Program-made: the position numbers and the translations under genes
Notes under the pieces: generated by a model
Seen by the model: the letters and a program-made list of their open reading frames with translations, nothing else
Databases searched by the model: none
Told to the model about the DNA's origin: nothing
Origin: an uncultured Oscillospiraceae bacterium
Lineage (GTDB): Bacteria; Bacillota; Clostridia; Oscillospirales; Oscillospiraceae
Direction of reading: 5' to 3'
Assembly (NCBI GenBank): GCA_947632175.1
Contig: CANROC010000014.1
Span: forward strand, 25,918 to 89,917
DNA length: 64,000 nucleotides
Shown here: one piece after another, positions 29,946-46,600 of the stretch
Layout: every line of letters starts with the position of its first letter
How positions within the stretch are numbered: the first letter of the stretch is position 1

Positions 29946-30215
29946 TCTTCGCTGTGCGTATTATACCACAAATCGAACGATTTGTCAAGTATTTTTTAGT
30001 ATTCGTAAGCAAAAATATGTAGTGGTCGCCGTCCCCGGCGGCCCCTACGGCGTTGATGGAACGTAATTTGGAAAATGTAGGGGCGGACCCATGTGTCCGC
30101 CCGTCCCCCGTCCCCGCCGCGCGGGCAAATTTAAAAAATGCGCCGCGAAGCGGCGCATCCTTTTTAAGCCCCCTCCTCGCAGGGCGGGACAGGGGGCAGC
30201 GAAAGGGGGGAATGA
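29946..30215. repeat. repeat cluster including promoter-bearing module copy a (minus strand)
   Basis: Minus strand TTGACA (29983-29988), 17 nt spacer, TATAAT (29960-29965), next to hairpin units gtggtcgccgtccccggcggccc and gtaggggcggacccatgtgtccgccc. Confidence 0.65.
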
Positions 30216-31658
30216 TCAGGCGGCACCGATGTCGCGGATCAGGGCGAGGAAGAGGGGGGTGTGAGTGGCGGTGTCTATGACCATGCAGAGAAAGGGGCGG
30301 TCCAGGGTAAGGCAGGGCTCCAGCACCGTGTCCTTTGTCTCCACGGCGGTGACGGCGGCTGCGCGGGTGCCGTCCTCGGCCACCTCCAGAAGCGTCTTAT
30401 GGAGGACCCGGGAGATGAAGACGTTCCCGGCGTCGCTATAACCGAGGCCGGAGAGGTCCGCAAGGGCGGGCTCAAAGGCCCTGACCATGCCCATGGCCGT
30501 CAGCGCCTCCCGCAGGTCCGACTCCCCCTCTACGGTGAACTTGGGGATGCCGCAGGTCACCCAGGACGCCTCGAAATCCTCGATCCCGTCCGCCTCCCCG
30601 GCCCCCGCCAGGAGCGCCCGGAGCTGCTCCCCGGTGAGGGAGGCCAGGAGCTCCTCCACCGTCACGCCCTCGTCGGGCAGGAGGGCGGCGAAGGCGAAGC
30701 CGTTTTCGTAGTTTTTGAGAAAGCCCGAGACGTTCTCCCCGGTGAAGAAGCCGTCCGGCCTGCTGAACATCATGGAGACGGTCCGCCGGGCGCCGTCCTC
30801 GGCGGTGAAGACGCGGTTCTCGACCCTTTCCACAACGTGATAGCGTCCCCTCTCCCACCTGGCCTCAAAGGCCAGGGCGTTCAAAAGGACCATCACGTCG
30901 TCCCGGGGGAGCTCGTCTAAAATCTCCGGGATCATGCCGTGCGTGCGGTCGCCGGCCCAGGCGTTGATGTCCCGGAGGGTGGCGTCGTCAAATGCCTCGG
31001 CGTGGATGGCGGCACAGTAGGTGTCCGCGTTTTTCTGAAGAAAATCGGGCTGGGCGTGGAAGCGGCTGTCCCGGTTGAGCCAGATGGCGTTGGCGACGCT
31101 CACCGCCTCCCCCGGAAGGCTCTCCCCGTAGGCCCGGAGGTACGCGCCCAGGGTCTCCGGGTCCCGGCCGAGAACGGCGGTCATCTCCTGAAGCGTCTCC
31201 CCCCGCGCCCCCAGGGCCGTCATGCCCAGGGCCGAGAGGACCGAGTAGGGGGAGATGAGCACGTTCCCGCCGGTGTCGCACGCCCGCAAAAGCCGCAGGC
31301 CGAAGTCCGCCGTCAGGGCGGCGTTCTCCGCCGTCAGCGTCCCGGGATCCGTGGGGACGCGGGCGCTCAGGCCCGCCATCAGATCCCCGGCGGCCAGGGG
31401 CAGCGCGGGACCTTGAGAGGGCGGCGTGTGAGCGGCGTCGGTGTCCGTGGGCGAGGCCGTGCCGGGGGTCGTATCCTCCACCGGTCCCGGCTCCCCGCCC
31501 CGGAGGACCGGCCACAGGCCCACCGCCAGCGCCAGGACCGCCGCCGCGGCCGCGATCCTGGGCCAGACCTTTTTCCGTTTCGGCGGGGCGGTAAAGGCCT
31601 CCGCCGCGAAGCTTTCGTCCAGATTTCCGATCTTATCGGCAAGCTGTCTGTCGTTCAT
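30216..31658 (-). CDS. membrane-anchored serpin (short cytoplasmic N-tail, one TM, Pro/Thr linker, serpin domain)
   Basis: Serpin core (..NVLISPYSVLSALGMTALGARGETLQEM..). Inhibitory-type hinge EDGTRAAAVTAV before the C-terminal LDRPFLCMVID. TM segment IAAAAAVLALAVGLWPVL. Confidence 0.85.
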   Translation of the reverse strand: MNDRQLADKIGNLDESFAAEAFTAPPKRKKVWPRIAAAAAVLALAVGLWPVLRGGEPGPVEDTTPGTASPTDTDAAHTPPSQGPALPLAAGDLMAGLSARVPTDPGTLTAENAALTADFGLRLLRACDTGGNVLISPYSVLSALGMTALGARGETLQEMTAVLGRDPETLGAYLRAYGESLPGEAVSVANAIWLNRDSRFHAQPDFLQKNADTYCAAIHAEAFDDATLRDINAWAGDRTHGMIPEILDELPRDDVMVLLNALAFEARWERGRYHVVERVENRVFTAEDGARRTVSMMFSRPDGFFTGENVSGFLKNYENGFAFAALLPDEGVTVEELLASLTGEQLRALLAGAGEADGIEDFEASWVTCGIPKFTVEGESDLREALTAMGMVRAFEPALADLSGLGYSDAGNVFISRVLHKTLLEVAEDGTRAAAVTAVETKDTVLEPCLTLDRPFLCMVIDTATHTPLFLALIRDIGAA

Positions 31659-32212
31659 ATGGGTATATCCTCCTTTTCCAGCGTCTCCCGCAGCTCCCGG
31701 CGCATCCGGTAGAGGATGCCGGTGACCTTGGAGACTGAAAATCCCGTTTCCCGGGCGATGAGGGCGATGGGGTCGAAGCGCCAGTAGCGCCGCAGGAAGA
31801 TGTGGCGCTTCAGGGGGCTCTGGGCGCGGAGGAAGTCCTCGATCACCTGCTCCGTCCGGCGTCCCTCCAACAGCGTCTCAGGTGTGCACGGCCCCGAAAC
31901 GCATTCGGAAAGCTCCTCCAGGGACTGGGTCACGGCGCTTCCCCGGCGCTGGGCGTTGAGGCGGTCGTAGAGCTTCAGCGCCGCCTTGCGCGTCAACGCG
32001 CAGACGAAGGCCCGCAGGGACCGGGGCTCCGTGGGCGGAATGGCGTTCCAGACCCCCAGGTAGGCGTCCTGCACCGCCTCCTCCCGGTCCTCCGCCACCG
32101 CCAGGATATTCCCCGCCACCGCCCGGCACAGCGCCCCATATTTGCGGTCCGTCTCCGCGACAGCCCGCTCGTCCCTGGCCACATACAGCGCCACGATCTC
32201 CCGATCCTCCAT
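31655..32212 (-). CDS. ECF-type RNA polymerase sigma-70 family factor
   Basis: 185 aa with region 2 (..AVQDAYLGVW..) and region 4 HTH (..IARETGFSVSKVTGILYRMRRELR). Its stop overlaps the serpin start (ATGA). Confidence 0.88.
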   Translation of the reverse strand: MEDREIVALYVARDERAVAETDRKYGALCRAVAGNILAVAEDREEAVQDAYLGVWNAIPPTEPRSLRAFVCALTRKAALKLYDRLNAQRRGSAVTQSLEELSECVSGPCTPETLLEGRRTEQVIEDFLRAQSPLKRHIFLRRYWRFDPIALIARETGFSVSKVTGILYRMRRELRETLEKEDIPI

Positions 32213-32428
32213 CGGATCACCTCCCTACCCAATAAGTACGGAAACAGACGAAAATCTCACAAAAAAATTAAAATTTAAAATAATAAAATATTTTTCGCGG
32301 GGCTTTGCCTCGCGAAAAATCCCTCTTGTCGCCCAAGTGTGCCGCCTCCGGCGGCGCGCGCAGGGCGACGGCAGAAGATAAGGCCGTGAATTCCGCAGAA
32401 TTCACGGCCTTATCTTCGCACGTTCCCC

Positions 32429-32460
32429 TTTAAAAATTAAAGGCGGCAACGCCGCCTTTA
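32429..32460 (-). terminator. ferredoxin terminator
   Basis: ttaaaggcggc-gtt-gccgcctttaa followed by ttttt on the minus strand. Confidence 0.75.
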
Positions 32461-44317: not shown

Positions 44318-45379
44318 ATGGAAGAATTGAGAGAACCGTTTTTTGATTTTCTGGACGCCCAGCCCACCGCGGTCTTTGCCGTGGAGGACGGGAGGGTCGT
44401 ACACGTCAATCCCGCCGGGCTGTGCCTTGCGCCGGACGCCCTGGGCGGCGACGCCGGGGCGCTCTTTGGGGAAGAGCTGGCCCGGCCCGGCCTGGCGGCC
44501 CGGGTCCCCTGGCGGGGGCTGGACGCCAGGGGGGAGGACCTGGGGAGGCTGCGGCTCATCACCGCCGCCGCGGACGGCCTGCCCCTGTGGGAGGACCGGG
44601 CGCTTTTGAACGACGTGACCGTCGGGCTTCGGGAGAAGCTGAGCGTGGAGCTCTACCAGCTTATGGAGCTGGAGAAAAAGGCCCGCGAGGCCGGGGATAT
44701 CGGCGCCATCCGAGACCTGGCGTCCATGGACAGGCGCCTGTGCCAGGCGCTCCGGATCGTCCGGAACCTGGGCCGGCTTTGCGGCGACGGGGACAACAGG
44801 CCAAGGCTTGCCGGCCTGGAGCTGGGCGCGATGGTGCGGGATCTCCTCGCCACGGTGGCGTATTTCTGCAAGGGCCGGGGCGTGGAGCTGGAGCTCGACT
44901 GCCCCCAGCCCGTGGAGCTCATGGGGGACCGGCGGCTTCTGGAGATCATGGTCATGGAGCTCATCGTCAATGCGGTCAAGCACACCGCCTCCGGCGGGAA
45001 GGTGTCCGTTTCCGTAGGCGTCTCCGCCGGTTTGGCGGTGATCCGCGTCGCCAACGGCGGCACGGACCGCGACAACGCGCGCCTGAAGGACCTGGAGGAC
45101 CGCTTCGACATCCCCGCCCCGGCGCTGGACCCGGAAGCCGGCGCGGGCCTGGGCCTCCAGGTGAGCCGCCGCATGGCCGCCCTCCACGGCGGGGCCGTCA
45201 TCCTCCAGACCCTCCCGGACGGCTCCGGCACCGCCGCCACCGCCGCCCTCCCCATCCGTCCCCCCGAGGACGATATCCTCGCTGAGCCCATCGAGACCGG
45301 CAGCACCGCCTTCGACCTCCTCATCGACCTCTCCGACATCGCCGACGCCTCCGTCTACGAGCTGCGCGAAACGCTGTAA
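44318..45379 (+). CDS. histidine-kinase-like ATPase (HATPase_c) protein, soluble, no recognisable H-box
   Basis: N box ELIVNAVKH and G boxes GAGLGLQV in the C-terminal half. No TM. No His in the predicted dimerisation region. The start is uncertain (ATG 44318). Confidence 0.65.
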   Translation: MEELREPFFDFLDAQPTAVFAVEDGRVVHVNPAGLCLAPDALGGDAGALFGEELARPGLAARVPWRGLDARGEDLGRLRLITAAADGLPLWEDRALLNDVTVGLREKLSVELYQLMELEKKAREAGDIGAIRDLASMDRRLCQALRIVRNLGRLCGDGDNRPRLAGLELGAMVRDLLATVAYFCKGRGVELELDCPQPVELMGDRRLLEIMVMELIVNAVKHTASGGKVSVSVGVSAGLAVIRVANGGTDRDNARLKDLEDRFDIPAPALDPEAGAGLGLQVSRRMAALHGGAVILQTLPDGSGTAATAALPIRPPEDDILAEPIETGSTAFDLLIDLSDIADASVYELRETL

Positions 45380-45844
45380 CCAAAAGCCGGCGCCCCCGCG
45401 GCGCTTTTTTATTTCCCCCACCCTCCATAGGCACGGTCGCCCCCTTGGGAGGGGGTCCCTCCTTTAGCCCCTCCCTCTGGGAGGGCTCCCTCCTTTAGCC
45501 CCTCCCTCTGGGAGGGGGCAGGGGGTGGGAGCGAGGATTTGCCAGCGCAGTTATCCCACGCTCGCTTCCCCCCCTGCCCCCCTCCTACGAGGAGGGGGCG
45601 AAAAAGGTTGCGCCTGCGGCGCAGGCTTGAATTTGCCCGCTGCGGCGGGGACGGGGGACGAAAGACGGGGGAACTTCCGGTGAACGAAACTTACTACGTG
45701 CGGGCCGCCAGGACTGCGCCCGCAGGCGCGCATCACGAGCGCAACCGCCGCGTAGCGGCGGCTCTTAGCGCGGAGATGTGGCGGCCCCTACAAGGTGTGT
45801 TGTCGCAACGGTTCCGGAAATTCGCGCCAGCCTCCGACACGGAG

Positions 45845-46600
45845 CCCCCTCCTCGTAGGAGGGGGGGCAGGGGGGAAGCGAGCGTTGGATGACAGAGCGG
45901 TTCCAACAAACCGCACCAGCCCAAATTATGCCGTACGGGCCGCTGCCCACAGCGGCCCCACGTTGCAGGGCTCGGATTGCCCCCGATAAAAGCCGTAGGG
46001 GTCGCCGTCCCCGGCGACCCGCGTTTCGACAACCACCAATGTCGGTTGAATGGGATAACCTCTCGCATTCCCCGTAGGGGCAGACCCATGTGTTCGCCCG
46101 TGCAACGTTGCGGAACGGGGACGGTTTCGATAAATCGCACCCGCTCCCGTCTTAGTGCCCCCTCCTCGTAGGAGGGGGGCAGGGGGGCAGCGAACGTTGG
46201 ATGACAGAGCGGTTCCGGAAAATCGGACCAGCCCAAATTATGCCGTACGGGCCGCCGCCCACAGCGGCCCCACGTTGCAGGGCTCGGATTGCCCCCGATA
46301 AACGCCGTAGGGGTCGCCGTCCTCGGCGACCCGCGTTCCGATAACCTCCGATGTCGGTTGAATGGGATAACATCCCATATCCCCCGTAGGGGCGGACCCA
46401 TGTGTCCGCCCGTGGCTACGTTGCGGGACGGGGACGGTTCCGATAAATCGCACCCGCTCCCGTCTTAGTGCCCCCTCCTCGTAGGAGGGGGGCAGGGGGG
46501 AAGCGAACGTTGGATAACAGAGCGGTTCCAACAAGCCGCACCAGCCCAAATTACGCCGTAGGGGCCGCCACTCCTGGCGGCCCGTGACCACGTTGTATTA
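45845..46600 (+). repeat. tandem repeat, period 313 bp, about 2.4 copies
   Basis: The unit starts ccccctcctcgtaggagg at 45845, 46158 and 46471. Copies 1 and 2 are near-identical by eye, and copy 3 diverges after about 90 bp. Confidence 0.85.

Follow-up and report, generated by a model that had tools for sequence, protein, structure and literature searches.

A membrane-anchored serpin encoded behind a dedicated ECF-type sigma factor in Clostridia: putative anti-sigma partner and candidate protease sensor

A stretch of 64,000 nucleotides from the genome of an uncultured Oscillospiraceae bacterium (assembly GCA_947632175.1, contig CANROC010000014.1, positions 25,918 to 89,917; hereafter the window) carries a gene for a sigma factor of the extracytoplasmic function (ECF) type, directly followed by a gene for a membrane-anchored serpin. 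We consider it likely that the serpin protein is the cognate membrane partner of this sigma factor. With less assurance, we favour the view that the two genes form an autoregulated sigma/anti-sigma operon, in which the serpin would act as the anti-sigma factor within a feedback loop that replenishes it. The full loop driven by proteases is a tentative proposal. Three observations lead to the anti-sigma reading: the cytoplasmic tail of the serpin protein is, within this genome, exclusive to this sigma subfamily, it is conserved, and the pairing has arisen repeatedly. An earlier note made from the letters of this DNA had already suggested that the serpin doubles as an anti-sigma factor; the same three observations now put it in the position of a cognate partner, and the anti-sigma function itself stays conditional. 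The gene arrangement is real, and from it we infer sigma/anti-sigma signalling in a new variant, with its component steps of sigma binding, serpin inhibition, signal identity, and regulated proteolysis. The pair points to a mode of protease sensing and defence that has so far not been described.

The sigma protein was called ECF-type in the earlier note, and profile searches agree. It matches Sigma70_r2 of Pfam (E 6.8e-7) and the NCBIfam model TIGR02937, sigma70-ECF (45 bits, cutoff 42.9), the matches spanning residues 23-178. With 185 residues and sigma regions 2 and 4 only, it is an ECF (group 4) sigma factor. Searched against the PDB, the profile of its family finds SigW first (5WUQ, E 3e-10), then SigL, SigE, and CnrH. 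About nine close paralogues are present in the genome (E 1e-27 to 1e-47, phmmer with the sigma protein), which comprises 3.54 Mb in 82 contigs (G000; contig labels such as C1 or C2 refer to it). The stop codon TGA of the sigma gene and the ATG of the serpin gene have two bases in common and the coding sequences overlap by 4 nt, as the earlier note had stated and as a reading of both strands confirms. The same 4-nt overlap recurs in orthologues and in other loci where tail and serpin are fused, and it probably brings about translational coupling. Chance adjacency and a mis-called start codon were considered and are ruled out by the kept overlap and the kept tail.

The architecture given in the earlier note for the serpin protein holds in all its parts: a tail of 31 residues (MNDRQLADKIGNLDESFAAEAFTAPPKRKKV), one predicted transmembrane (TM) helix, a Pro/Thr-rich linker, and a full-length serpin domain with an inhibitory-type hinge. 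In a model made with AlphaFold2 (AF2) from 16 sequences, the TM helix lies at residues 34-46, and the tail is drawn with low confidence (predicted local distance difference test, pLDDT, below 55) as a pair of short helices at residues 3-11 and 15-21. The TM stretch may also be a cleavable signal peptide, with A-L-A at residues 42-44. In those orthologues of the window pair whose serpin domain is 49-51% identical to that of the window, the tail (residues 1-30) is 47-53% identical and the linker 17-23%. The tail core RQLAD-IG--DE is invariant among them, and about 30 linker residues are missing in three (L094, L095, and L002). Such conservation of a cytoplasmic sequence is expected from selection beyond membrane anchoring, because a plain anchor would not need it.

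The earlier note had proposed a homology search of the tail against anti-sigma domains. This search gave no known anti-sigma domain in Pfam, NCBIfam, or the PDB, whether it was run with the single sequence, with five to six partner proteins, or with a 19-sequence profile. The sole match in this part of the protein was NF052375 (17-19 bits), and it falls on the TM region. The tail profile showed no sequence similarity to PDB chains, including those of CnrY/NepR type. As the earlier note had remarked, there is no zf-HC2 motif; the tail has neither Cys nor His and, at 31 residues, differs from the class I anti-sigma domain, a four-helix domain of 80-90 residues that often carries H-x3-C-x2-C. Both class I and class II anti-sigma domains are longer than about 31 residues.

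The same N-terminal module is found throughout the sigma subfamily in this genome. After seven of the nine paralogous sigma genes, the next gene overlaps by 4-14 nt and starts with L-x-D-A-I-G-x-I-D-E-x-x-I-x-E-A, followed by a run of Lys/Arg and one TM helix. The family pattern can also be written L-x-D-A-(I/L)-(G/N)-x-(I/L)-D-D-x-(L/I)-x-E, located at residue 1, and the basic patch is kept in all module proteins. A hidden Markov model (HMM) of the module, searched against the proteins of the genome with a cut at E<1e-4, retrieves nine of them, among which the window protein scores 81 bits. Eight stand directly behind a sigma gene of this subfamily and the ninth is the second serpin of a tandem; further matches below these nine are TM-like noise only. 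It was the HMM alone that revealed one of the module partners, located on contig C15. Behind the sigma genes, the ectodomains that follow the module are three serpins, one BNR/Asp-box repeat protein, and others without a match. All four serpins of the genome carry the module. Five module proteins have an ectodomain other than a serpin and are candidate sensors: one carries BNR/Asp-box repeats, one gives a weak FG-GAP-like match, and three match nothing. Two other ECF-like sigma factors of the genome have different partners, one of zf-HC2 type (H-x3-C-x2-C) and one a 654-residue protein of unassigned domain type; therefore, the module goes with this sigma subfamily and not with sigma factors generally. 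At C2:180650-184188, on the minus strand, a paralogous sigma gene is followed by two module serpins in tandem.

Beyond this genome, a module profile was compared with 1.84 billion cluster representatives, and 7311 clusters match it (E<=0.001), with lengths from about 50 to more than 800 residues. Among the matches listed, the module match almost always begins at residue 1. Among the best 150 matches, 115 are at least 150 residues long; a serpin domain occurs in four of these and is the sole repeated Pfam domain, almost all the others having no match. All 21 module genes that could be assessed in the fetched loci stand behind a sigma gene. For the module itself, no Pfam or NCBIfam model was found, and a word-indexed homologue search with the tail of one module serpin (P0006) alone was uninformative, with only 18 candidates. 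Judged by its profile, the module is an undescribed N-terminal tail-TM family of Clostridia sigma partners, and the window protein is a member of it. An A-A-C motif (consensus AAACLCL) is almost without exception present in the TM helix when these 115 proteins are aligned; the window protein reads AAAAAV at this position and has no Cys there.

The pairing of sigma and serpin genes was followed through the 120 best homologues of the window serpin. Most of them, 97, are lipoproteins of about 410 residues with a lipobox; 13 carry the module and 10 have other N-termini. Three module serpins (P0002, P0006, and P0069) lie directly behind a sigma gene for 185-186 residues with a 4-nt overlap. A fourth (P0004) is at a contig end; of the gene upstream, only a piece of 32 codons is left there, again with a 4-nt overlap, and together these four occupy at least three unrelated neighbourhoods. 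P0056, which has a different tail type, likewise follows a sigma gene, of 187 residues. Two lipoprotein serpins served as controls: P0105 has no sigma gene nearby, and P0018 stands behind a sigma gene and a gene for a 446-residue module protein. Within the host genus, serpins are present in 17 of 24 other species. Of the congener serpin genes fetched, 25 out of 33 bear the module and lie in sigma-led operons; among them are the tandem form and, in four species, orthologues of the pair seen in the window.

The survey of the pairing that the earlier note had called for was extended to species representatives, with 80 serpin loci and 84 serpin genes. Three of these genes are fused to the module, 12 lie behind a sigma gene of the same subfamily, 17 are within 2.6 kb downstream of the gene for a more distantly related ECF-like sigma factor, and 52 have no sigma gene in the flank that was fetched. 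In all, 32 of the 84 (38%) are preceded by an ECF-like sigma gene of the same orientation at a distance of no more than 2.6 kb. Position alone would put about 1% of genes there, a value that we estimated from the 11 sigma genes of this kind in 3.5 Mb, and by this measure the pairing is much more frequent than chance would allow. Orthologues and paralogues alike have kept it. Most of the 12 same-subfamily loci show an unfused three-gene form, in which the sigma gene is followed by one for a small module protein and then by one for a lipoprotein serpin. The intervening proteins have 160-450 residues (mostly 180-300), with an acidic linker and a small C-terminal domain. In nine such loci (L018, L026, L041, L048, L057, L070, L076, L082, and L083), the linker of the intermediate gene product is of acidic low complexity and the C-terminal domain has no Pfam match (for example, IVTIEKWDKNGFDGIISE).

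Trees of the sigma factors and of the serpin domains were built with FastTree, and the support values are local ones. In the serpin-domain tree, module serpins fall into at least five to six separate clades among the lipoproteins, with at least six changes of N-terminus. The clade of the window serpin (99% local support) adjoins lipoproteins of Oscillibacter type. In the sigma tree, nine three-gene operons and four fused ones are interspersed within a single clade, whose local support is 97%. On these trees, fusion arose at least five times. The fused loci L035 and L073 group closely with the three-gene locus L076 in both trees, on weakly supported branches, as expected if the tail and TM helix of the partner were fused in place to the downstream serpin. 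Two further tail types were seen in front of a TM helix and a serpin, each with its own ECF-like sigma subfamily. One begins M-K-E-I-E-E-Y-T-A-E-V-L-R-R-A-E-S (L011, 950-2416; L078, 2607-4200), and the other M-N-R-Y-K-D-A-N-N-D-I-H-T-P-C-K-L-C (L110, 1541-2981; L124, 1342-2947); the tail of L110 is near the zf-HC2 pattern.

A candidate promoter for the sigma factor lies upstream of its own gene, in the layout TGAGAT-N14-CGTACTTAT. Three lines of evidence were used: a search by regular expression, the footprint left in orthologues, and a count over the whole genome. (G/T)TGAGAT is kept in four orthologous loci, even where the sequence farther upstream cannot be aligned. The -10-like element is kept in four of five sequences (the window, L092, L094, and L095) and reads CGGTCTTAT in L093. 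The pattern TGAGA[TC]-N12-16-CGTAC[TA]TA has a single occurrence in the genome, at the window site. A two-block position weight matrix of the promoter did not detect this genome's variant of the motif. We infer that the two elements work as a promoter and that the sigma factor drives mainly its own two-gene operon. A near-match at C14:10950-10968 was considered as a second target and rejected; judging by its sequence, it probably lies within coding sequence, though no long open reading frame is listed there. In other Clostridia, TG(A/C)AACC-N14-CGAGATAT, which broadly resembles an ECF promoter, stands 60-80 nt 5' of the sigma genes of this family. No such site was found in the gap between partner and serpin genes of the three-gene operons of these Clostridia; therefore, the serpin is probably co-transcribed with sigma and partner. 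The same kind of ECF-like pattern, TG(T/C/A)AAC(C/T)-N15-CG(A/T)C, is found directly 5' of four stand-alone lipoprotein serpin genes that have no sigma gene nearby, vs. a chance expectation of about 0.16 by a rough count. This suggests that these serpins belong to the regulon of an unlinked sigma factor of the same family.

The ectodomain itself has all the marks of a full-length serpin. Among solved structures, that of tengpin comes nearest (2PEE/2VH4, E 3e-70, residues 111-474), and the core of the AF2 model has pLDDT values of 85-96. The hinge, EDGTRAAAVTAV, occupies residues 428-439. What characterizes an inhibitory hinge is established: Glu at P17, Gly at P15, Thr or Ser at P14, and small residues at P12-P9. 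The window protein follows it with E428-D-G-T-R-A-A-A-V-T and has a reactive-centre loop of canonical length. We counted the residues between P17 and the RPF motif and arrived at the number that we take alpha-1-antitrypsin to have; from this spacing alone, P1 would be Thr444. Residues 433-448 of the loop have pLDDT below 50, which is compatible with an exposed loop in a native-state serpin. Between orthologues that are 80% identical, the distal loop is wholly different (ETKDTVLEPCLTL vs. EFKYFGFPDLRLAL), and such hypervariability would suit an evolving target specificity. In a divergent paralogue clade, P14 is Cys or Gly. The window serpin also has an insertion of nine residues, GIEDFEASW, at residues 357-365 (30564-30590), in a part of the model with low confidence; it is found in no other sequence of the 16-sequence alignment, including P0002 (80% identical) and P0003.

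These elements can be assembled into a proposed mechanism. The 24-residue module and the basic patch would stay in the cytoplasm and hold the sigma factor at the membrane, and the TM helix and disordered linker would carry an inhibitory-type serpin to the cell surface. The ATGA overlap, together with the Shine-Dalgarno sequence inside the sigma gene, would give a roughly stoichiometric co-production of the two proteins. At the surface, the serpin would trap attacking serine proteases. Once the protease load exceeds or consumes the serpin, the ectodomain or linker would be clipped, or the serpin-protease complex degraded. The remaining stub would then be cut by a site-2 protease, freeing the sigma factor, and transcription of its own operon would renew the serpin. 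A gene for an M50 site-2 protease is present at C6:154294-155343 (regular expression and Pfam).

Several points weigh against this proposal. The tail is only about 31 residues long, resembles no entry of Pfam, NCBIfam, or the PDB, and is modelled at low confidence. One paralogous sigma gene has no module partner. The candidate promoter is a motif match with a footprint and not a mapped start site. In two congeners (G012 and G020; loci L120 and L121), a lipoprotein serpin comes right after the sigma gene and the module serpin second, and the order of the genes is thus not strict; compared with the C2 tandem, this means that the N-terminus has switched between lipobox and module at the same operon position. 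Finally, the reactive-centre loop lies 35 residues from the C-terminus, and its cleavage alone leaves the ectodomain unshortened. Site-2 proteases usually require a shortened ectodomain, and the C-terminal piece of a cleaved serpin stays bound. Since loop cleavage removes only about 35 C-terminal residues, a further step would therefore be needed for sigma release, and the link from protease capture to that release is speculative. The serpin ectodomain might itself be the signal receptor, with covalent capture and loop insertion, or the clearance of dead complexes, making the membrane-proximal region cleavable and so releasing sigma; we see this as conceivable but doubtful.

One may also suppose that the protein is an anti-sigma factor in which the serpin is mere cargo, the sigma factor being released by some other cue, for example envelope stress or a constitutive low level of intramembrane proteolysis. 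This would agree with the many unrelated and mostly unassigned ectodomains borne by the same tail, with the replacement of the small partners of three-gene operons by a serpin without loss of the operon, and with the unchanged length of the ectodomain after loop cleavage. However, the serpin is the commonest recognisable ectodomain of the module (four of the 115 top matches of at least 150 residues), no fewer than three tail/sigma types acquired it on separate occasions, and a whole sigma clade is dedicated to serpin operons. Taken together, these three facts argue for a functional tie of signal to output. Moreover, two analogues, RsiV and, as far as the accounts of it go, SerRK of B. breve, respond to the enzyme that is countered (PMC4183432; PMC8012564). 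We therefore regard a mere cargo role as unlikely.

In another explanation, named as the alternative in the earlier note, the protein is a sigma-controlled surface inhibitor and nothing more; its tail would serve for insertion, localisation, or some other contact, and the sigma factor would be regulated transcriptionally or by an unlinked factor. Control by sigma is the part of it that has gained ground, since the unfused operons make serpins likely outputs of this sigma clade. Tail-less lipoprotein serpins are indeed the majority among the 120 best homologues, and their genes often come after a sigma/partner pair or have the same promoter motif in front of them; the tail is unusually short, with no match to a known anti-sigma domain. 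Yet its core is conserved like the serpin domain and far above the linker, and a mere anchor needs no such motif. In this genome, the tail is confined to operons that begin with a sigma gene of this subfamily, and the fused operons (the window and four homologue loci) contain no second gene that could be a candidate for the anti-sigma factor. An inhibitor without anti-sigma activity thus appears improbable. Last, the ectodomain could be a binding or chaperone-like sensor, as non-inhibitory serpins exist, Thr is an unusual P1, and a divergent clade has lost the usual P14 residue, but the consensus hinge, the loop spacing, the hypervariable distal loop, and the nearness to tengpin, which we assume to be an inhibitory serpin, make this a very improbable reading.

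The nearest known system in its logic is SigV-RsiV of Bacillus subtilis, Clostridioides difficile, and Enterococcus faecalis, in which an ECF sigma factor is co-transcribed with a single-pass anti-sigma factor (PMC4183432; PMC5014341). The RsiV ectodomain is a receptor for lysozyme, whose binding licenses site-1 cleavage by signal peptidase, followed by intramembrane proteolysis (PMC4183432). The SigV regulon confers lysozyme resistance (PMC4183432; PMC5014341). In the window, proteases would replace lysozyme. The tail of about 31 residues matches no known anti-sigma family, including that of RsiV, and the ectodomain is a serpin, which would act as a covalent suicide inhibitor and would in itself be the resistance factor. 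RsiV has a full anti-sigma domain and an ectodomain of DUF4179 type. The window protein has no DUF4179/RsiV Pfam domain, and its resemblance to RsiV is functional only.

In its biology, the nearest system is that of Bifidobacterium breve, a gut commensal whose serpin is under dedicated, adjacent, and autoregulated signalling. According to later accounts of the original work, the serpin operon is protease-inducible via an adjacent two-component system (Alvarez-Martin 2012, via PMC8012564 and PMC8201313). As these accounts describe it, the sensor is a histidine kinase separate from the serpin, whereas here an ECF sigma factor is combined with a putative regulator-binding tail borne by the serpin. 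The serpin of B. longum is TM-anchored at its N-terminus and cell-associated (PMC8012564). Siropins and miropin are inhibitory serpins of gut and oral bacteria, secreted or lipoproteins, and are thought to protect against host proteases (PMC8201313). Most close homologues of the window serpin are such lipoproteins. Unlike it, serpins of this kind start with a signal peptide or lipobox, lack a cytoplasmic tail, and have not been described as linked to a sigma factor. Tengpin of Thermoanaerobacter tengcongensis (2PEE, 2VH4, and 2PEF) is likewise a Clostridia serpin with an N-terminal extension; we know of no link between it and a sigma factor or tail module. Very short anti-sigma domains exist in CnrY and NepR, class II two-helix clamps around sigma-2 and sigma-4 (PMC6101532; CnrH-CnrY, 4CXF). 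For the window tail, too, a pair of short helices is predicted, and CnrH is among the matches of the sigma profile (E 1e-6), but the tail has no sequence similarity to CnrY or NepR and is shorter still. In the literature searched, we found nothing connecting serpins with sigma or anti-sigma factors; no such link is mentioned in the main text of the ECF reclassification, in a serpin phylogeny, or in a gut serpin review.

In the gut, serine proteases of host and microbial origin put bacteria under considerable stress and, to our knowledge, protease sensing by a commensal is known in one case, the two-component system of B. breve. A gene layout that is very widespread in Clostridia ties serpins to a dedicated sigma clade, and its fused form puts an inhibitor and a presumed sigma-holding tail on one polypeptide. 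If the anti-sigma reading is true, the module would define a new family of minimal anti-sigma domains, thousands strong and so far without a model in the databases, and thousands of hypothetical proteins behind Clostridia sigma genes could be named candidate anti-sigma factors. The protease-sensing pathway would be open to direct testing, and tail, TM helix, and exchangeable ectodomain would offer a modular scaffold for sensor engineering. Should the serpin itself be the receptor, no transmembrane signalling receptor that exploits the suicide mechanism of serpins would have been known before it, and it would belong to a wider and undescribed set of ECF-controlled, membrane-tethered protease traps in gut Clostridia, comprising the fused and the three-gene forms. 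The features on which the analysis draws are collected in Table 1.

Table 1. Coordinates of the sigma-serpin pair in the window and of related features elsewhere (C, contigs of the host genome; L, fetched loci).
Feature	Position	Strand	Remarks
Sigma gene, ECF-type, 185 aa	31655..32212	minus	regions 2 and 4 only; Pfam and NCBIfam matches
Serpin gene, 480 aa	30216..31658	minus	directly 3' of sigma gene
ATGA stop/start overlap	31655..31658	minus	plus strand reads TCAT
Shine-Dalgarno sequence of sigma gene, GGAGGTG	32218..32224	minus	sequence reading
Shine-Dalgarno sequence of serpin gene, AGGAGG	31669..31674	minus	within sigma 3' end, 10 nt 5' of ATG
-35-like element, TGTGAGA	32255..32261	minus	putative ECF-type autoregulated promoter
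-10-like element, CGTACTTAT	32232..32240	minus	CGT core typical of ECF promoters; orthologue footprint
Cytoplasmic module, residues 1-24, MNDRQLADKIGNLDESFAAEAFTA	31587..31658	minus	candidate sigma-binding tail
Basic patch, PPKRKKV	31566..31586	minus	positive-inside signal, N-in topology; sequence reading
Single TM helix, residues ~32-53	31500..31565	minus	hydrophobic stretch WPRIAAAAAVLALAVGLWPVL
Disordered Pro/Thr/Gly-rich linker, residues 54-105	31344..31499	minus	AF2 pLDDT <50
Serpin domain, residues 116-473	30240..31313	minus	Pfam Serpin (PF00079), model 3-366 of 370, E 4.5e-68
Reactive-centre loop, residues 428-448, EDGTRAAAVTAVETKDTVLEP	30315..30377	minus	P1 by spacing would be Thr444
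Intrinsic terminator, GCGCCGC-TTCG-GCGGCGC + TTTTTT (minus strand)	30131..30158	minus	3' of serpin gene; terminator scan and reading
Module serpins of the genome	window; C1:72210-73670; C2:182181-183635		behind paralogous sigma genes
Fourth module serpin, tandem	C2:180650-182164		same N-terminal start
Non-serpin module proteins	C1:8788-9660; C6:4637-5761; C6:172060-172815; C9:84455-85276; C15:~44851-46035		behind paralogous sigma genes
Promoter sites of stand-alone serpins	L020 ~1495; L023 ~2875; L032 ~833; L045 ~2847		pattern match

In the window, the sigma-serpin pair forms an isolated unit between a convergent atp operon and an upstream ferredoxin gene that has its own terminator hairpins. 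The terminator behind the serpin gene is bidirectional and serves the atp operon too. Three hairpins are found at 32290-32460, between the ferredoxin gene and the sigma promoter, and one of these is an extended, almost perfect palindrome (GAAGATAAGGCCGTGAATTC-TGCG-GAATTCACGGCCTTATCTTC). The three could be repeat elements or act as terminators. At 29960-29988 on the minus strand, a short way downstream of the region of the serpin terminator, a perfect 12/12 match to a sigma-70-type promoter (TTGACA, 17 nt, extended TG, TATAAT) lies antisense, facing the 3' end of the atp operon.

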